Made by a program: the position numbers and the translations under genes
IMG/VR virus record: IMGVR_UViG_3300036770_002122
Span: 1-64,000 of that record
Source of the DNA: a virus
DNA length: 64,000 nucleotides
Reading direction: 5' to 3' (one strand)
The notes under the pieces: generated by a model
Databases searched by the model: none
What the model was told of the DNA's origin: nothing
Seen by the model: only the letters and a program-made list of their open reading frames with translations
Shown here: one piece after another, positions 5,949-59,814 of the stretch
Position numbering within the stretch: position 1 is the first letter of the stretch
Layout: each line of letters opens with the position of its first letter

Positions 5949-8639
5949 ATGGCCGTAAGTTTAGAAAGTTTAAAATCAGCCCTCTATGACATGCTTGAAA
6001 GCAGGGGTTATGATCCTAAAGGATTGGATAGTACAGGTAAAGAAACTCCTAACCCTGAGGACAGTGATGTGATACGTTTTGAATTAAAAGATCAAAACGG
6101 TATATCAGCGGGTCAAGGTTGGTTAGGTATAGAACTAAAGAAGAATCGTGCAGAAGATAAAAAGAACATTGTGCTTTGGATAGATCCTGCATTGATGAAA
6201 AGCCCAGAATTTGAGACATTTTTCAATCTATTACGTGGTTGGAAGCGCGATAAGAACGCAGGTTTTGAATTAAAGACAAACAAAGGCCAATTAGTACACG
6301 ATATGAAAAAGAGGACGATTATGAAAGAGAAAGAACAACTAGAAGAGGGTTATTATCCTCTAGGTAAAAAATCAAGTTATAGTGATAATGTTCCTACTGT
6401 GAAAATTATCCTTCAGCATACTCGTCAACTTGAAGAAGGTGAACAACGCTTTCGTAATGTCGCACGAATTTTTGTAGAAAATGCTAATGGTGAAAGATTC
6501 TTATTGCCAACCAATCGTCCTGGTTTAGCAAGAGTTTTCGCTAGACATATCGCAGAAGGCGGTACACCATACGATGATAAAGCAAAACACATTACTACAT
6601 TAGTAGAAGAATATCAAAAAATGGCAGGATTTGTTCGTGCCACAAAGAATGGTCAGTTTAACGAATCAGCACAACGTTTAGTCAATGAAGGTGTTAATCA
6701 TTATAATAACTTACGTGAAACTTTAAGTAGAATGACCACGCATAAAGGCTATGTCAAGTATTTTGAAAGTTATACACCTGTATTAAACGAAGAGTCAGAT
6801 GAAAATTCATTAAACGAATTATTCGTAAGAGAAACACTAGACCCACGTATTGAAAGTGTATTACCAATATTAAGTCGTTTATCAAAGAACTTAAACGAAA
6901 TGAATGAAGTTAAAGAATTAGACGAATGGGCACAAAGTTTAATTGAAGGTGGCGACGGCGGCGAAGCAAGTGAAGAAACAGATGGTGATACTGCAGGCAA
7001 CGCAGGCGAAGGTGGCGCAGAAGATGTTAGCGTTAATGAAGAGGATGTCGGCTTAAAAAAAATGGCAGACAGTAATGAAGTAGCCGAAGTTATTTTTCAA
7101 AGTTTAAAAGGTGAAACTGGTTTAAACAGTAATGACATCTATAGCATTATAGATGAATATGAAAGTTTAATGGCTGATGAAGGCTATGAAGTAAACAATG
7201 ATGATGTTGCACAGATATTATTAGATAAACTAGATATCAGTGACGATTTAACTGAAGCACCAGGCGCAGAAACACTAAAACATAATCAAAACACAGTTAA
7301 GTCAAATCTTGATGCATTTGATTTAGATGAAGATTTTCGCTATTATTATCCTGGAGCAACAAAAGCCTCAATAAAGAAAAAAGCAAAAGGATTACATCAT
7401 GGCATTAAAGAAGCTGGTAGCGGAGATGCACCAATAGAAAAAATGTCAGATGCAGATTTGGCAGATTATTTAGGTGTCAGTGTTAAGTTCGTATCACAAA
7501 ATCGCAAGAAAGCAGAACAAGCAGCTAGAGATAAGACAGATGATAATATAGATGAATCTAGCTTGCCTGGCTTGCAAACACTACCATATAAAATAAAACC
7601 AAATGATGGAACACCAAAAATTAAAACTCTCCCACATGAGATAAAACCAAGTGATGGTACACCAAAAATTAAAAAATTACCATATGAAGTTCCTGCAGGT
7701 GAGTATAAAAAAATCAAGGAACAAGATGAAGGTTACAGAGAAATAAGTAATTTAAATGATTTTAAAACTGGAACAGTCGGTTCAGTTGTTCAATATAAAG
7801 ATGGAAAATTTGGATTTAAGTATGGTAATAAATTAAGTCCACAAAAATTTACCAGTAGACGAGATGCAGACAACGCACTGTACGCACATCACAAGCAGGG
7901 TGTGGCGGAAGATATTGACAATTTAAATACTGCCCAACAAAGCGCACAAATGCAAAAGCAAGGCGGCGACATGAAAGTGTCTAGACAAGAGTTTGATACT
8001 ATGATGCAAAATAATCCAAACGCTGCTGGATTAGCAAAAGATAAAGGTATGCAAAGTGATTTAAAATATGCTACAGATAAAGAAGGCAATATAGATCAAA
8101 CAAAACTATTAGCAAGAGGTATTGATAGAATGATGCCTGCTATGGGCGGCGCAGTAAGAGACCTTAATAAAGTTTATTACAGAGACATGCCAGGCAAACT
8201 TCAAGCAGATCAAAAACGTAATCCAGAAGAATTTAAAAAGCAGTATGATGCACTGGACCCAGAATCAAAGGCTGAAGTTGATAGACAACTAGCGATAACA
8301 CCTGCACAAGCCAAAGCAAATTATCAAGCACAACAAGGTGCAGCAGATAAACAAATGACGGATATGGGTTATACAAAATATGGTTATAACTTACAATCAC
8401 GTCCAGTTGTTAATCGTGTAAAAAATGCAGGCGCTTGGGTAAAAGATAAATTTAACGAAGAAGATGAAGAAGTATCAGAAGATTTAGATGCAAATCAAAA
8501 ACGTGCAGGACAATTAGGCCCAACTGAAAAAGTAGGACCAAAAGGCGCAGTAGGAAAATTAGTAGGTGCAAGTGAAAGTATAAATTATGATGAAGATAAA
8601 CTTTTACTTGATCGTATTACAAGATTAGCAGGTAAATAA
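5949..8639 (+). CDS. Large modular protein, putative processed head-internal polyprotein
   Basis: 896 aa; late promoter; many (L/I/V/F)-x-E sites between compositionally distinct modules; C-terminal DRITRLAG. Confidence 0.55.
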   Translation: MAVSLESLKSALYDMLESRGYDPKGLDSTGKETPNPEDSDVIRFELKDQNGISAGQGWLGIELKKNRAEDKKNIVLWIDPALMKSPEFETFFNLLRGWKRDKNAGFELKTNKGQLVHDMKKRTIMKEKEQLEEGYYPLGKKSSYSDNVPTVKIILQHTRQLEEGEQRFRNVARIFVENANGERFLLPTNRPGLARVFARHIAEGGTPYDDKAKHITTLVEEYQKMAGFVRATKNGQFNESAQRLVNEGVNHYNNLRETLSRMTTHKGYVKYFESYTPVLNEESDENSLNELFVRETLDPRIESVLPILSRLSKNLNEMNEVKELDEWAQSLIEGGDGGEASEETDGDTAGNAGEGGAEDVSVNEEDVGLKKMADSNEVAEVIFQSLKGETGLNSNDIYSIIDEYESLMADEGYEVNNDDVAQILLDKLDISDDLTEAPGAETLKHNQNTVKSNLDAFDLDEDFRYYYPGATKASIKKKAKGLHHGIKEAGSGDAPIEKMSDADLADYLGVSVKFVSQNRKKAEQAARDKTDDNIDESSLPGLQTLPYKIKPNDGTPKIKTLPHEIKPSDGTPKIKKLPYEVPAGEYKKIKEQDEGYREISNLNDFKTGTVGSVVQYKDGKFGFKYGNKLSPQKFTSRRDADNALYAHHKQGVAEDIDNLNTAQQSAQMQKQGGDMKVSRQEFDTMMQNNPNAAGLAKDKGMQSDLKYATDKEGNIDQTKLLARGIDRMMPAMGGAVRDLNKVYYRDMPGKLQADQKRNPEEFKKQYDALDPESKAEVDRQLAITPAQAKANYQAQQGAADKQMTDMGYTKYGYNLQSRPVVNRVKNAGAWVKDKFNEEDEEVSEDLDANQKRAGQLGPTEKVGPKGAVGKLVGASESINYDEDKLLLDRITRLAGK
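7572..7694 (+). repeat. In-frame 48-nt tandem repeat (about 2.5 copies)
   Basis: LQTLPYKIKPNDGTPK / IKTLPHEIKPSDGTPK / IKKLPYEVP. Confidence 0.85.
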
Positions 8640-46561: not shown

Positions 46562-46618
46562 TATTTACTGCCTTCGAAGGTATGTTAATCCAATGTTTTT
46601 TATAATTTGCTATAAATA
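46562..46618. promoter_or_regulatory. Divergent late promoters
   Basis: TAAATA on minus (46562-46567), TATAAATA on plus (46611-46618), palindrome CCTTCGAAGG between them. Confidence 0.65.
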
Positions 46619-52537: not shown

Positions 52538-52975
52538 ATGGCAAATTTTGCTCAAGGCAAATATCAATGTAAGAATAAAGGTAAGTATATAGGCACACAT
52601 GTACCTAGATATCGTAGTGGTTGGGAATTAACATTTATGATGTTTTGTGATAACCACGATAGCGTGATATCCTGGGCTAGTGAATCTATACAAATACCCT
52701 ACAGAAATCCACTAACAGGCAAATCAACAATTTATGTACCTGACTTTTTTGTTCAATATCAGGATAAATATGGCAGACAACGTGCAGAACTTGTTGAAAT
52801 AAAACCTAAAAAACAAAGTCTAATTGAAAGTAGAACCGCTAGCGCAAGAGACAAGGCTGCAGTGGCAGTCAATCATGCAAAATGGGCAGCAGCAACAGCA
52901 TACTGTAAAAAAGCAGGATTAACTTTTAGAGTCATTACAGAGGATGATTTGTTCAGGAACGGAAGGAATAAATAG
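52538..52975 (+). CDS. Head completion nuclease (T4 gp4-like)
   Basis: YRSGWE, WASE, YVPDF, VEIKP, KWAAA, FRVITE. Confidence 0.9.
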   Translation: MANFAQGKYQCKNKGKYIGTHVPRYRSGWELTFMMFCDNHDSVISWASESIQIPYRNPLTGKSTIYVPDFFVQYQDKYGRQRAELVEIKPKKQSLIESRTASARDKAAVAVNHAKWAAATAYCKKAGLTFRVITEDDLFRNGRNK

Positions 52976-52990
52976 TATATAGGAGATCGT

Positions 52991-53722
52991 ATGCTATTTC
53001 TTCAAAATAAATACACATCTTGGTACTTTGCTATTATCAACAAAGCAAAAAAAAGAATAACTGAAGGGTATACTGAAAAACACCACATCATTCCGAAAAC
53101 ACTAGGTGGTAAAAATGATAAATCTAATATTGTAAAATTAACTGCTAGAGAACATTTTATTTGTCATTTACTGTTGACTAAAATGTTAGTTGATGATAAC
53201 AGACATAAGATGATATACGCATTACACATGTTGTCTAATGCATCTAACAAATTACATCAACGTTATGCACCCTCAAGCAAACTATACGAATATGAAAGAA
53301 AAATATTTGCAGAAACTCATTCGTTTAAGATGAAACAAAATCATCCATTAAAAAATCCATTACATAAACAATCGCATCAGTTGGGTATAGATAAAAGAGG
53401 TCCTACTTCTATCAAAGGTATCAAAAGATCAGAGTCGATGAAAGAAAAGATGCGTAACAGAGAATGGACTCAAAAAGCCCTTGATAATCGTCTTGCAAAT
53501 TGCCTTAAATCAGCAGAAGCAAGAAAAGGAAGCAAGTGGTCTTCCGACATGCATAAACGTAGATTCCAGCAATACGTCGAAAAGAACAAGCACCTATTTT
53601 CTCAAGTATTTTCATTAGAAGATCAAGGTTACAGCACCAGGCAAATAGCATTGAAAATGAATATATCCTGGGATAGAATAAATTACATCTTAACAAATAA
53701 ATACCGACTAAATACCCTATGA
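52991..53722 (+). mobile_element. Free-standing HNH homing endonuclease
   Basis: EKHHIIPKTLGG.N...N.V.LTAREHFICH; basic middle region; C-terminal HTH-like STRQIALKMNIS. Confidence 0.85.
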
Positions 53723-54226: not shown

Positions 54227-54859
54227 ATGAAAAGCCTAAAACAATACATTGCAGAAAGTGTACATTTATATGATGTAACTATTAAAATTGCCGGAGAAGT
54301 TGATAAAAACTTCCTAGATTTGTTCATTCATAATCTTAAGAAGTTTGATCCAGCAACTCCAATCACACCTAAAACACTTCCTATTGCAAAAGATGCATAT
54401 GGTTTTCCGGGTATGAGCAATGAACCAGTAACAGTGTTGCGTTGCAAATTCCGTTATCCTGCTACAGAACCAATGGTACAACAGTTAGCACAATTATTAG
54501 GCTATAATGTCAATTATGTACGTTTGGTCAATAGCGAATACGATGATAGCATCAACCGTGAAAGCGAAGAATATGCTAATCAAATGGAGCACAGTCCTGT
54601 ATTAACTCACACTGAAATGGAAGATGCGGGTGATGCTGCTAAAAAAGCAAGTAAGGATTATGGTAATTCATATTTAGATAGTATCAAAGCACAAAGTAAA
54701 GACGGTTTTCAAGGCAAAGATTTACAGTTTGATGGAAAGAGAACCCCAGACAGTTTTGATCCATTCAAGCCATACTTAGATGACAAATCAAAGGGTAATA
54801 AGAGTCCAATGACTAATATTACACGTCCTGCCAAGCCTAAAACAGGCGCAATGGCGTAA
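54227..54859 (+). CDS. Putative head protein with capsid-targeting-like N-terminus
   Basis: MKSLKQYIAE resembles the T4 IP targeting peptide MKTYQEFIAE; late promoter. Confidence 0.55.
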   Translation: MKSLKQYIAESVHLYDVTIKIAGEVDKNFLDLFIHNLKKFDPATPITPKTLPIAKDAYGFPGMSNEPVTVLRCKFRYPATEPMVQQLAQLLGYNVNYVRLVNSEYDDSINRESEEYANQMEHSPVLTHTEMEDAGDAAKKASKDYGNSYLDSIKAQSKDGFQGKDLQFDGKRTPDSFDPFKPYLDDKSKGNKSPMTNITRPAKPKTGAMA

Positions 54860-54870
54860 GAGGTTTTATC

Positions 54871-57800
54871 ATGGAATTTAAGAAATTTTTAGAATTAGTA
54901 AATGAGGCTGAGTCAACAGCCGAAAAAGATGATAAAGCCAAAAAAGCAGGCGAAGAAGTCACTAAAGATATTGAATATGATGAAGGTCATAAAGGTAGTG
55001 ATGACGAACGTGCTGAAAAAGCAGGCAAAAAAGTTGCCGCTGATATCAGATACGATGATAAGAAAGATAAAAAGAAATCATTAAAAGAATATTTTGAAGA
55101 AACTGAACAAGAAATTATTAATGAAGGTCAGTTTCCTATTCCAGTAGTTGGTCCAGACAATAAACCAATTGCTGGCCAATCAGGCTTTTTAAACGTAAGT
55201 GTTCCAGGACAAGCAGGCGTAGCAGTCAATGACATGCTGCGTAGATTAGGTGCAAGAGGTTTAAGTATAATTCTTCCACCAAATAGAATTCAACAGCAGC
55301 AACAGCAACAAGCATTGGCTGCTGCTAAAAGAGCATCTGTACAAACTTCAGGCAAACAAGTTGCTGAAGAAACTGTAGATGAAGGCATTGATGATGTTGT
55401 CAAATTAGGTACAAAGTACGGCGACGATATTGCTAAACAATTTAGTAACTTTGCTAGCGGATTTAAAAATCCACAAGGTGCAATGAATTTACCAAATCAA
55501 TCATTAGCATCAAAAGCAGGTGCAGCAACATCAAGAGGCGGTCCTGCAATAGGGGCAGGCGCCGGTGCAGCAGGCATGGCTGCATTAGGTGGTGACGATA
55601 AACCTGCAGCAGATAATAAACCGGCAGCCGTCGCAGCAGACAATAAACCAGCAGCAGCGGCACCCGCTGCACCAGAGGCTCCTGCTGCTCCAGCAGAGCC
55701 TGTCGCTCCAGAGGCACCTGCTGTAGATACAGCACCTCCTGCTCCACCATCTGACGAAATTGATAGAATTCAACAATTGGCTGGTATGAGCGATGAAGAA
55801 AAATATGGTAAGGTAGGAGCAGAGATTCGTAAATTAGATCCTGAAGCCTATAAAAATAGACCAAGAGATTATCAAGGTAATATTGATTTATTAAACAAGT
55901 TAAGAGCGCAAAAAGCAGATGACACCACTGCACCACCTGCAGCAGATACTAAAGCAGATGATAAGCCAGCAGACGCAAAGGCTGATGAAAAACCAGCAGA
56001 TGCAGCAGACGCAAGTGATGAATTAGAACCTGTAACTGTTACCGGTAAGAGAACACAACCTGCTGATCAAGATAAAGAAGGTGACGCTGAATTAGGTCGT
56101 TTACTAAATTTATCTGGCGCAAATACCTATGATGAATTAGGTAATTGGTTAAAGAATAGAGATAAGCCTGCAGGAAGCACTGAAGAACCAAAAGCAGCAG
56201 AGCCGGCAAAAGAACCAGAATCAAAACCTGAAGAACCAGCCGTTGACGCAGCAGGGGAAGAACCAGCCGTTGACGCCGCCGGCGAAGAACCAGCACCCGC
56301 TGCTGCAATTGAACCTAAAACTTCTTATAGAGTTGTTGATCCGTCGACCGGCAGAGCAAGAAATGTTTCAAAAGAAAAATATGATCAAATGGTTGCAAGA
56401 GGCCAAATTGATAAAGATAAAGGTTTAGACTATCAATTTAAAGTCAGAGACCCAGATGGTTCAATTAGAACAGTAAAACAAGGTGATCCAGATTGGCAGA
56501 AGTATGCTGATCAGGCAGAAAAAACTGTAGCATCAAATTACAATCAATTACAAGGCGAACCAGAAGGCGAAGAAGGCGAAGAAGGCGAAGAGAAATCAGG
56601 TAGACCAAGTTTGTTTAGAAGATTATTCAACATCGGCAAAGACGATGAAGGTTATTATCTAGGTAAAAAGCGCGGTCGTGATAATGCTCCAGATGATACT
56701 GAAGAAAAGTCAGAACTATCTGAAGGTAAACTTGCTGAAAAGTGGGAAGGCGATGTTAAAGTTGAACCAACTGGCGAGTATAAAAATAAAACAAAAGCAC
56801 AATTACAGGCAATGTTGGCACGACTACATAAAACTGGTCCTCATAAGAAGGGCAGCAAAGAAGCCAAACAGCAAAGTCAAATTAATTTTGCATTACGTGC
56901 CAAAGGTGGTTGGAAGAAAGGTGAAGGCGCAGCAATGAAATCTGTAGAAGAAGATGCTACAGCAGCACAGCCAAGCAAACTACAGCAAAGACATCAAGAT
57001 AACTTTGCTGCTAAACAACAAGCAGCACATAGTAAACAAGATAGTCAAGCAAAAGATTATCTAGCATCAAAAGGTGTAAGCGATCAAAATGCAGCAAAAC
57101 TAATGGCTAAACCAATGAGAGAAGAAAAAGTCGATGAAAAGTTTGCAAGCCAACAGCAAGCAAAATTAATGTACGCAGCAGCAGGCGATAAAAAAGTCGC
57201 AAAGAAAACTGGCGTAAGTCAAGACGTAGCAAAAGAATTTATTAAAAAGAGTCATGGGCAGAAAGTAAGCAAACTACCCAAGAAAGTAAAAGAAGCAGAA
57301 ATTCCAAAGTCAGGCCCAGATTATGGTGCAGGATTAGGCGCTGGTCGCAGCGACAACGTATTGGAGGCAAAGCCGGATTTCATCGATCTTGATAAAGACG
57401 GTGATAAGAAAGAATCAATGAAGAAGGCAGCAGCCGACAAAAAGAAAAAGAAGGTAAATGAATCTATGAGCAATCTATTAAAAGCAGCATATAGCGAAGG
57501 CTATGTACACGGTCTACGTGAGCAACCATGCCGCGTAAAACACTACCAAGATATGGAAGAAGCAAAGCATTACTTTGAAGGTTACAAATGTGGCCTAGAA
57601 GAATGCTATGGACTCGTTCCAGGTCGCGGCTATGTTGACGAAGAATCATCACAAGATGTTGTAGACAACATGGCAAGTTTCGGTGCAGTAGGTGTTGAAG
57701 AAAATACTAATCAAAACATGGCAGCAGTTCCCGTGCAGAAGGCACAGGCTGGTCAAGTAAACACTTCAGCAACCAATCCTGCTCCGCAACAAAATGTACC

Positions 57801-59814
57801 AGTAAAGCCAACTCCAACTGCAATGCCACAGCAGCCACAAATTAATGTCGGCGGTGTACCTGCAACTAAACAAGATGGCTCATCAAACATGGGTGCTGTA
57901 ATGCAAAGCCGCGCAAACTTAAGCAATATTGGCCAGCAAGCAGCACAACAAATGCAAGAAGATGATTTAGATGAAATGGATAAAGGTGATTGGTTGAAGC
58001 ACAAAGCAAAAACTACACCAGGTGACACATTTAAGGCATTTGGTCAAACATTCAAAGATAAAGACGTTTCAGAAACATATGCATTTGAAGATTTAGAACA
58101 ACAATTAAACGCTTTATTAGAAAATAAAGTTGTTAATGAAGGTCTTTCGGTATCGATGTCAACTGGGCAACAAGGTAGCCCAGACAGCGTAAGCGTAACT
58201 GCTACAGACGGTGATAGTGAAAAACTATTATCATTCATTAAGCAAGTAGGTTTGGGCGGTTTATCAGATGCAGAACCAATTAATACTCCTGCTGAACCAG
58301 CAGTTGTTGCAACAGTAAGTGATTACGGCGCGCCTAAATTCAGCGGTCATGAAATGCCAAGCATGGATGATTTGCTATCAAAATTAACAGGCATCGAATC
58401 ACATGACGATCATGGTCATGATCATGGGCATGGTGATGAAGAATCAACATGTAACGAATGCGGCATGATGGAAAGTTCATGCGGCTGCGAAAAAAAAACT
58501 GAAGAAGTTTTAGAAACTACAGTTGAAGCGCAGGTAAAATCAGATCAACTTGACGAAGCAGCACCTGCATTAGCAGCACTAGGTAGATTAGCAGGTCTTG
58601 CAGGACGCGCAGCATTAGCAAATCCTGGTAAGGCTGCTATGCTTGCAAAGCGTGCCGCAAGCGCATTCAAAAAAGATAAAGAAGAAGTAGACGAAACCGA
58701 AACATTAGATCAACGCGAATTTATGGTCGCTGAAGATGACGGTGAAGGCTATGAACAAAGTCAAGCAGATGCAGGCAAGATTGATAGCGCATTAGCATTA
58801 AGCGGCGCATCAAAGGGCGGCGCAACTAACGAAGATGCCATGGATCTAGGCTTAGGCGGATCAATGAAAGATATGATGTCAAAATTAGGAGACATTGAAA
58901 ATAAATCAATGTCAACTAATACTTCAAATGACACATCATCATATACTGTAGATGGCAAACCAGCAACTAAAGATGAATATGATAATGCTATGAAGAATTT
59001 CAAGATGCCAACAATGCCAACAATGCCGACTATGCCAAAAATGCCTAACATGCCAGCAGGTATGGAACTTCCTGAATTGCCAGAACTTCCTGATTTATCT
59101 GATTTAGGCATGGGCGCTGCTGGCGGTGATGACAATGTAAGCATGTCAAGACAAGAATATAATGATCTTATCAATGCAGCATTACCTGGCGTAACTGTTA
59201 CAGGCAAAAGAGTAGGTGGCGACGATGAGTTGCAACCAGTAACTATTGCTAGCAAAAAGAGAGAATTGCCTGGAAGTGATGATGAGTTACAACCAGTAAC
59301 TATTCAATCAAAGAAGCGTGAAATGCCTGCAGGTGATGACACATTTGTAGCAAAAGCAGATGATGCTGAAATTGCAAATATTAAAAAGTCACTAGACGAC
59401 ATGATGAAAGATATCATGCCTAGAATGGCAGGTCGTGACCAAGATTGGTTAGACGCTCAACAAGATCAACAACTAGCAACACAAGGTGCTGCAGGAGATT
59501 GGTTCAGAAGTGCATTAGGTAGAGGGGCAAATTTAAATGATCCTAATACTAGAGCAAAACTTGATCGTCTTGCTAAGAAAGCACAAACTAATGAGCAAGA
59601 AAAGTTAGATGAATGGGCAAATGATGCAGGTCAAAAAGGCACAGATGCAGCATTCACCCGTGATACAGACTTTATGACTCAAACTATCAGCGGTGGATTG
59701 AACAAGCCTAAGTCAACAGGTCAAACTACAATCCCTGTTATTGCTGGTCAAGAAGCAAGAGAAGGCGACGAAGATGTGCAAGCCTGGAAGAAATTAGCAG
59801 GTCTAGCGAAGTAA
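54871..59814 (+). CDS. Giant modular protein, putative head-internal/ejection polyprotein
   Basis: 1647 aa, low complexity; more than 20 hydrophobic-x-E sites; internal repeats; TonB-box-like motifs; LAG motifs. Confidence 0.55.
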   Translation: MEFKKFLELVNEAESTAEKDDKAKKAGEEVTKDIEYDEGHKGSDDERAEKAGKKVAADIRYDDKKDKKKSLKEYFEETEQEIINEGQFPIPVVGPDNKPIAGQSGFLNVSVPGQAGVAVNDMLRRLGARGLSIILPPNRIQQQQQQQALAAAKRASVQTSGKQVAEETVDEGIDDVVKLGTKYGDDIAKQFSNFASGFKNPQGAMNLPNQSLASKAGAATSRGGPAIGAGAGAAGMAALGGDDKPAADNKPAAVAADNKPAAAAPAAPEAPAAPAEPVAPEAPAVDTAPPAPPSDEIDRIQQLAGMSDEEKYGKVGAEIRKLDPEAYKNRPRDYQGNIDLLNKLRAQKADDTTAPPAADTKADDKPADAKADEKPADAADASDELEPVTVTGKRTQPADQDKEGDAELGRLLNLSGANTYDELGNWLKNRDKPAGSTEEPKAAEPAKEPESKPEEPAVDAAGEEPAVDAAGEEPAPAAAIEPKTSYRVVDPSTGRARNVSKEKYDQMVARGQIDKDKGLDYQFKVRDPDGSIRTVKQGDPDWQKYADQAEKTVASNYNQLQGEPEGEEGEEGEEKSGRPSLFRRLFNIGKDDEGYYLGKKRGRDNAPDDTEEKSELSEGKLAEKWEGDVKVEPTGEYKNKTKAQLQAMLARLHKTGPHKKGSKEAKQQSQINFALRAKGGWKKGEGAAMKSVEEDATAAQPSKLQQRHQDNFAAKQQAAHSKQDSQAKDYLASKGVSDQNAAKLMAKPMREEKVDEKFASQQQAKLMYAAAGDKKVAKKTGVSQDVAKEFIKKSHGQKVSKLPKKVKEAEIPKSGPDYGAGLGAGRSDNVLEAKPDFIDLDKDGDKKESMKKAAADKKKKKVNESMSNLLKAAYSEGYVHGLREQPCRVKHYQDMEEAKHYFEGYKCGLEECYGLVPGRGYVDEESSQDVVDNMASFGAVGVEENTNQNMAAVPVQKAQAGQVNTSATNPAPQQNVPVKPTPTAMPQQPQINVGGVPATKQDGSSNMGAVMQSRANLSNIGQQAAQQMQEDDLDEMDKGDWLKHKAKTTPGDTFKAFGQTFKDKDVSETYAFEDLEQQLNALLENKVVNEGLSVSMSTGQQGSPDSVSVTATDGDSEKLLSFIKQVGLGGLSDAEPINTPAEPAVVATVSDYGAPKFSGHEMPSMDDLLSKLTGIESHDDHGHDHGHGDEESTCNECGMMESSCGCEKKTEEVLETTVEAQVKSDQLDEAAPALAALGRLAGLAGRAALANPGKAAMLAKRAASAFKKDKEEVDETETLDQREFMVAEDDGEGYEQSQADAGKIDSALALSGASKGGATNEDAMDLGLGGSMKDMMSKLGDIENKSMSTNTSNDTSSYTVDGKPATKDEYDNAMKNFKMPTMPTMPTMPKMPNMPAGMELPELPELPDLSDLGMGAAGGDDNVSMSRQEYNDLINAALPGVTVTGKRVGGDDELQPVTIASKKRELPGSDDELQPVTIQSKKREMPAGDDTFVAKADDAEIANIKKSLDDMMKDIMPRMAGRDQDWLDAQQDQQLATQGAAGDWFRSALGRGANLNDPNTRAKLDRLAKKAQTNEQEKLDEWANDAGQKGTDAAFTRDTDFMTQTISGGLNKPKSTGQTTIPVIAGQEAREGDEDVQAWKKLAGLAK

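Follow-up and report, generated by a model that had tools for sequence, protein, structure and literature searches.

Conserved hydrophobic-x-glutamate motifs at module starts in a large, disordered protein of uncultured jumbo myoviruses: candidate sites of head-protease processing

Introduction

A stretch of 64,000 nucleotides of viral DNA (the window), comprising the first 64 kb of the 93-kb IMG/VR record IMGVR_UViG_3300036770_002122 (CheckV completeness 27%), contains an uninterrupted open reading frame (ORF) of 1647 codons (P0001; 54871..59814, + strand), preceded by a GAGG ribosome-binding site 8 nt 5' of the frame and representing an unnamed protein family of uncultured jumbo myoviruses. 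We report that this family has conserved a short signature, in which a hydrophobic residue precedes an invariant glutamate by two positions, at the starts of small modules carried on a largely disordered chain, and that its gene occupies a strictly maintained neighbourhood, directly behind a gene whose product begins with a T4-like tag. The reading that we favour, and hold tentatively, describes a modular protein, internal to the head of a T4-related jumbo myovirus and processed by a protease, with roughly 11-12 conserved candidate sites, in which we infer the head location, the cleavage and the protease. An earlier note, made from the sequence alone, had proposed a polyprotein that is punctuated by prohead-protease-type sites and releases 20 or more small effectors, with modules gained or lost in the manner of gene cassettes. 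Below we refine the definition of the motif and of the modules, describe their dispersal and neighbourhood, and weigh the readings that they suggest.

Conservation and placement of the motif

At the level of the family the motif is real and strongly significant. Among 35 diverse members, 13 of the 31 glutamates in an [LIVM]xE context are at least 80% conserved, against 8 of 106 other glutamates (Fisher 2.4e-5). In a set of 48 diverse members, Leu, Ile, Val or Met occupies position -2 (P3) of 11 of the 14 glutamates conserved at 80% or more, where the background of these residues is 16.6% (binomial about 6e-7); at other offsets from -5 to +5 they accompany between 0 and 5 of the 14, and none of seven conserved aspartates has them at -2. 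Family-wide, their excess relative to Glu takes the form of a single spike at -2 (1.60x; Val alone 2.0x); positions -3 to -6 are depleted, and no such spike appears relative to Asp. The conserved sites thereby share a signature of invariant Glu at P1, interchange of V/I/L/M at P3, a free P2 and mostly A/G/S at P1', which is found as well in 139 further cluster representatives. The P1 Glu is present in 47-48 of 48 members at residues 808, 832, 864, 1090, 1275 and 1288, and P1' is A, G or S at sites 85, 808, 832, 864 and 1090. By these features the motifs have the character of a short linear motif that has been conserved.

All 20 tetrapeptides listed in the earlier note are present in the target, at residues 12, 85, 166, 171, 618, 623, 694, 756, 808, 832, 864, 924, 944, 1035, 1068, 1090, 1229, 1275, 1288 and 1581, together with 7 further [LIV]xE that had not been listed. 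Conservation holds for about 12 of the 20, and the remaining 8 fall in stretches that are specific to a lineage or align poorly. When the target is compared by blast with 45 non-redundant members, the starts of high-scoring segment pairs gather at residues 14, 620, 806, 833, 864, 1034 and 1582, each cluster no more than 2 residues from a motif Glu; conserved modules therefore begin right after motifs and are preceded by variable spacers.

Ordered along the + strand, with a slash after the candidate P1 residue and counts from the 48 diverse members, the sites begin with the amphipathic N-terminal peptide MEFKKFLELVNE (54871..54906), delineated from family N-termini, which ends in V-N-E followed by Ala and is a candidate targeting propeptide. 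The candidate site I-N-E85/G (55117..55125) has Glu in 32/48, L/I/V at P3 and A/G at P1'. Conserved candidate sites follow at L-S-E618/G (56716..56724; Glu 40/48; P3 M/L/V) and V-K-E808/A (57286..57294; Glu 48/48; P3 V15 I13 M8 T6 L4; P1' A39 G6), then a weaker site at V-L-E832/A (57358..57366; Glu 48/48; P3 mostly T/V/A), and further conserved candidates at V-N-E864/S (57454..57462; Glu 47/48; P3 V40 I4 L2 M1; P1' S/G), V-D-E924/E (57634..57642; Glu 44/48), L-D-E1035/M (57967..57975; Glu 37/48, Asp 10; P3 L/M/V), V-N-E1090/G (58132..58140; Glu 48/48 and 136/136; P1' Gly 48/48 and 134/136), V-D-E1275/T (58687..58695; Glu 47/48), V-A-E1288/D (58726..58734; Glu 47/48; P3 V39 M5) and L-D-E1581/W (59605..59613; Glu 43/48; P3 L30 V9 I3).

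Within the single sequence the enrichment is weak. The target holds 27 [LIV]xE against 18.3 +/- 3.9 in shuffled sequences (p 0.0185; local 40-aa shuffles, p 0.0135). When it is set beside the other genes of the record, the motif excess anticipated in the earlier note is slight: the observed/expected ratio for [LIVM]xE is 1.40 (z 2.3, rank 6/106) versus 1.23 for the other genes pooled, so that the raw count is barely above background. As a separate observation, the strongest [LIVM]xE excess of the record (27 vs 15.8, z 3.3) belongs to an 896-aa "virion structural protein" just past the terminase (5949-8639, + strand), in which motifs with a small P1' number 9 against 3.3 expected; by this sequence criterion it may be another processed head protein.

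Modules, disorder and predicted structure

The modularity claimed for this protein is borne out, as small conserved modules separated by variable spacers, and its disorder is likewise confirmed. Disorder-promoting residues make up 60% of the target, its net charge is -70, and aromatic/aliphatic residues contribute 17.8% against a median of 31%. AlphaFold2 was run on a 671-aa member (L081) with a 48-sequence alignment and on target residues 13-618. The L081 model has a mean predicted local distance difference test score (pLDDT) of 58, with 293 of 671 residues below 50, and the target segment a mean of 50.5, with 341 of 606 below 50; the models are ~32% helical and resemble beads on a string, about half disordered. 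Confident elements of L081 are small: a helical hairpin (pLDDT 94-96, corresponding to target 865-915), a helix plus beta-hairpin, a beta-beta-alpha unit and a three-strand-plus-helix unit. The majority of conserved sites map to linkers of low confidence or to the N-terminal border of an element.

Several modules can be delimited in the target, all on the + strand. A DUF3008-like helical module (residues 760-806; 57148..57288), matched by phrog_16759 (4.7e-08) and phrog_25121 (1.9e-06), is the only part of the target matching any profile library; Pfam DUF3008 itself (PF11450) does not match the target, though it matches 2 of 48 members, and a Pfam scan of the target at E 0.01 returned no domain. 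The loop DLDKDGDKKE (DxDxDG; 57385..57414), which by eye looks EF-hand/Excalibur-like, is seen in about half of the non-redundant members. Between VNE864 and VDE924 lies a 60-aa helical-hairpin module with conserved His/Cys (GL[DE]ECYG; 57463..57642; pLDDT 94-96 at L081 273-321), defined also by invariant columns, of which no stand-alone copies occur among 33-105-aa proteins; within this confident hairpin, L-E-E911/C is probably structural, judging from the model. A 55-aa helix plus beta-hairpin module occupies residues 1036-1090 (57976..58140; pLDDT 86-93 at L081 353-382). The Cys knuckle CNECGMMESSCGC (58450..58488), which follows a His-rich run, is a candidate metal site with C1194 and C1197 at least 90% conserved and low AlphaFold2 confidence. 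The family's most conserved block is the 66-aa C-terminal module (GGLNKPKSTGQTTIPV ... WKKLAGL; 59614..59811). A profile search against solved structures found no match for the target, Foldseek against BFVD returned only disordered look-alikes (TM ~0.1) and small helical proteins, and an ESM Atlas search returned unnamed viral clusters only.

The motif +KLAG[ILV] closes nearly every family member (WKKLAGL/I; 59782-59811 in the target). It recurs within the target (IQQLAGM, GRLAGL), near the starts of protein 0203 of phage PA5oct (ILRLAGV) and of an ORF at 88515 (AKKLAGS); from this recurrence in sequence it may be a second short docking motif.

The acidic, disordered composition could also be that of an assembly-only core filler, a possibility that we consider rather improbable. 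Such a protein would likewise be directed to the prohead and cleaved at the sites described above, its fragments mostly expelled or retained as inert acidic peptides, as with T4 gp22/gp67/gp68, helping to build or size a very large head and yielding no product that acts in the host. Core proteins of T4 are cut to short fragments that leave the capsid, and extra propeptide sites help to clear fragments (PMC5694885); the charge and disorder of the target, and the lack of any module matching an enzyme or effector family, fit this account. Against it, strong conservation of the small modules right after the sites, in more than 1,100 clusters, suggests that the products matter; a 2.5-fold length variation among close relatives would be odd for a size-determining core; and PA5oct has a canonical scaffold gene between its protease and capsid genes. 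That scaffold-position gene lies far from the locus syntenic with the target, and assignment of the target as the canonical scaffold was accordingly rejected.

Extent of the family and variation of its units

A word-indexed search gave 251 matches, and the family spans 395 loci in IMG/VR and 1,122 cluster representatives (50% identity) at E <= 1e-3, or 325 at E <= 1e-30. Members are about 340-1690 aa and without name or annotation, and they occur on metagenome contigs of 285-350 kb. No match to the target was found in 50,697 cultured phage records by tblastn with the whole protein, residues 801-1300 or the C-terminal 84 aa. In 80 fetched loci the full ORFs range from 667 to 1676 aa, while neighbouring genes are 55-99% identical. 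Only four blocks are common to the whole family (residues 1-75, about 800-925, 1026-1225 and 1576-1647). The target is among the most expanded members, its added length consisting of Pro/Ala/Asp/Lys low-complexity repeats and lineage-specific modules; internal repeats were revealed by a window-identity scan, and none by blastp self-comparison of the target.

The proposal that modules come and go like cassettes holds in part. Units vary in presence, copy number and position, as with the AEKAG..V..DIE.D unit, which occurs in 0-4 copies and is N-terminal, middle or C-terminal depending on the member, and with AT-hook-like and TonB-box-like units, which are confined to subsets of members; the core modules, in contrast, are collinear. 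The TonB-box-like units of the target comprise LEPVTVTGKR, LPGVTVTGKR and two DDELQPVTIxSKKRE repeats (56017-56052, 59176-59205 and 59230-59319, + strand); the strict pattern is limited to the target's subclade (P0001, P0004, P0006) and occurs in no other gene of the record.

A bolder form of the polyprotein idea would have a head protease convert the virion-packaged chain, product of one late gene in an abundant uncultured lineage, into a dozen or more independent small proteins and peptides that are ejected with the DNA, in-frame gain of cassettes between cut sites making of it an evolvable effector array; in the target's subclade the products would include TonB-box-like and cationic helical peptides. 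We regard this as unlikely. The figure of 20 or more products is unsupported, given ~11-12 conserved sites, and the term effectors is conjecture, since no module has recognisable activity in Pfam or structure-profile searches.

Gene neighbourhood and the PA5oct comparison

The record belongs to a T4-related jumbo myovirus, its recognisable genes including large terminase, a gp32-like single-stranded DNA-binding protein, UvsX, DnaB and sheath stabiliser. Its 1192-aa sheath protein has as top cultured matches those of Phosso, Atu_ph07 and PA5oct, at ~45% identity. Local order is neck, deoxynucleoside monophosphate (dNMP)-kinase-like, sheath, tube (213 aa), tube-like (411 aa), and genes of 120 and 145 aa, followed by an HNH homing endonuclease, genes of 159 and 210 aa, the target and a collagen-like fibre (1136 aa). 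The sheath gene heads this tightly packed run and the target is its last gene. At 46611..46618 (+ strand), 56 bp upstream of the sheath gene, stands TATAAATA, which resembles a T4 late promoter; in the window it has 2 copies, against 9.2 expected from shuffles, one of them the copy before the sheath.

The 145-aa gene (52538-52975, + strand) encodes a T4 gp4-like head-completion protein (phrog_218 4.6e-43; PF08722 3.1e-22), the latter match being to a TnsA-like endonuclease N-terminal domain. Between it and the 159-aa gene lies the HNH gene (52991-53722, + strand), a mobile insertion, since it is missing from that spot in most of the 80 related loci. The family gene always follows the sheath, tube, gp4-like and 210-aa genes, and stands directly behind the 210-aa gene in 80 of 80 fetched loci.

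A large ORF a few genes past sheath and tube, whose two ends are conserved and whose middle varies, might suggest a tail tape measure protein lying in the tube lumen and setting tail length by its own; the 210-aa gene even has a very weak tape-measure PHROG match (E 0.046). We reject this reading as highly improbable in view of the neighbourhood, the predicted fold and the variable length. None of the intervening genes encodes a chaperone, and it is the gp4-like head-completion gene and a gene with a T4-like tag that precede the target; the models, with ~32% helix and about half of their residues below pLDDT 50, do not form long helices; and phages with 55-93% identity in sheath and tube encode versions of 667 to 1690 aa, growth proceeding by low-complexity slippage.

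PA5oct, which by its sheath is the closest cultured phage (45% identity), has the same local gene order and encodes a gp21-type S77 protease (PF03420, E 7e-25) beside its portal and capsid genes. Its positional equivalents of the 210-aa gene and the target, EST35_0202 and EST35_0203, likewise placed after sheath, tube, gp4-like and small genes, have been detected in virions by mass spectrometry. The former is a weak homologue of the 210-aa gene; the latter is an acidic protein of 498 aa with an M-F-x-x-x-D-I-L-type start.

Candidate head-targeting tags

The capsid targeting sequence (CTS) of T4 is MKTYQEFIAE (PMC8442874); its residues 8 and 10 control its processing, which Asp at 10 blocks (PMC9026906). 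The canonical layout is present on the neighbouring 210-aa gene (54227..54859, + strand) and not on the target: the former begins MKSLKQYIAE then S, its first 10 residues matching the T4 layout, and I8, E10 and S11 are invariant in 80 loci, with A, V, T, M, S or F at position 9 (P2). In the family itself, an amphipathic N-terminus ending in hydrophobic-x-Glu (h-x-E) within the first 16 residues is found in 38 of 47 non-redundant members, compared with 24 of 106 genes of the record, and further members have h-x-E at about residue 20-27. An h-x-E start followed by a small residue is limited to 9 of 106 record genes. Of these nine, six are accounted for by the target, the 210-aa gene and a cluster of genes at 81-89 kb. 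At that distance, outside the window, a 1215-aa protein (G000:82825-86472; L084:2825-6472) starts MSKIFE then G, its C-terminal part being transglycosylase/tape-measure-like (phrog_2276 2.5e-19); adjoining ORFs are also CTS-like at their starts (MKFNEIFE/S, MRYRQILE/A, MKIFEVIE/A).

Discussion

In the reading that we tentatively prefer, the target would be made late, alongside tail and neck genes; its N-terminal amphipathic peptide ending in h-x-E would bring it into the prohead core, like the T4 CTS; and a gp21-type (S77) prohead protease would cut after Glu at the ~11-12 conserved [V/I/L/M]-x-E sites, each cut falling just on the N-terminal side of a small conserved module and freeing the modules from variable, mostly acidic low-complexity spacers. 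The notion of a polyprotein with protease-type sites is supported in part, by the conserved signature at module starts, the N-terminal h-x-E, the CTS of the neighbour and the S77 protease of PA5oct.

A number of observations weigh against this reading. P3 is mostly Val, as against the Leu/Ile of documented T4 sites, and the canonical T4 [LI]xE is not enriched in the target (12 vs 11.6 expected, p ~0.5), where the raw motif count as a whole hardly exceeds the genome baseline. The expectation that indel breakpoints would coincide with motifs failed in the four closest homologues, in which breakpoints lie a median of 46 aa from a motif versus 25 for random positions and 4 fall within 3 aa of one against 4.7 expected; indels among close relatives represent slippage in low-complexity tracts. 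Some conserved motif instances, V-N-E1090/G among them, lie within confidently modelled helices or at turns and may be structural. In about 9 of 47 members no h-x-E occurs among the first 16 residues, and the N-terminus of the target (MEFKKFLELVNE then A), with 12 residues and Val at P3, is longer than and unlike the canonical 10-aa CTS. The gene is encoded among tail and neck genes. In PA5oct, the 0202 protein has YYDA in place of YIAE and no I-x-E, 0203 was rejected as a homologue of the target for want of detectable homology, and the family is absent from five PA5oct-like genomes, complete or large, in which the protease is encoded. Finally, PF03420 (Peptidase_S77) was not found on the 93-kb record or 19 related fragments, a portal gene was not found on the record or three fragments, nor a major capsid gene on the record; the head module has therefore not been sampled by these sequences, and it is for this reason that we infer the protease in this lineage.

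Several of these points would also suit a disordered virion protein that is left uncut or is trimmed only at its N-terminus, for example one associated with neck or tail or plugging the tail lumen, in which [VIL]-x-E-[GAS] would be a binding or a helix/strand-capping motif. Its gene would be expected where it stands, in the strictly syntenic run of sheath, tube, neck and gp4-like genes; several conserved motif instances abut modelled secondary-structure elements; and both the P3 Val, departing from T4 preference, and the failure to find a protease on the record or the 19 related fragments agree with it. We nevertheless give this alternative a low probability: the same tripeptide logic recurs at no fewer than nine places, mostly where pLDDT is below 50, the combination of free P2 and invariant P1 is typical of a protease site, and the neighbouring gene bears a processing-type tag like that of T4.

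Should the cuts prove real, the "tag, pack and trim" strategy of T4 would here be enlarged to a polyprotein; to our knowledge, extensive use of polyproteins is not known in bacteriophages. If the favoured reading is true, [V/I/L/M]-x-E followed by a small residue would provide a rule by which head cargo could be predicted across a large group of giant phages that is so far uncultured, and even the basic assignment as a head-internal, processed protein would annotate a core gene of the lineage, with more than 1,100 unannotated clusters.

Comparison with known systems

The closest parallels are with the internal head proteins and Alt of T4. Like them, the target has a short N-terminal peptide ending in hydrophobic-x-Glu with predicted cleavage after Glu, and would represent non-homologous, fast-evolving cargo, its neighbour gene nearly copying the T4 decapeptide layout. 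Alt is cut at both ends (PMC5694885). The T4 proteins, however, each come from a gene of their own, small or medium in size, and carry one or two sites, whereas the target family presents a single chain of 667-1690 aa with ~11-12 conserved internal candidate sites; unlike them, too, it has mostly Val at P3, is acidic and largely disordered, and shows no sequence homology that we could find.

Multiple cleavage is known for the charged T4 proteins gp22, gp67 and gp68, which gp21 reduces to short fragments by cutting at many (L/I)xE sites (PMC5694885). These are helical and encoded beside the protease and capsid genes, whereas the target gene lies elsewhere, as judged from PA5oct synteny, and has conserved mini-domains after each site. 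In phiKZ, 201phi2-1 and SPN3US, a diverged homologue of gp21 processes many proteins packaged in the head, cleaving after the Glu of a three-residue motif, and in phiKZ-like giant phages propeptides carry redundant sites (PMC9026906, PMC5694885). Those ejection proteins have S/A/G/T at P3 where the target has V/I/L/M, and they belong to a different lineage without homology to it; an assignment of the target to the phiKZ type of processed ejection protein was rejected, its conserved sites lacking the S/A/G(/T)-x-E motif. On the reading that we tentatively prefer, the target is a variation on the T4 principle of capsid targeting and gp21 processing.

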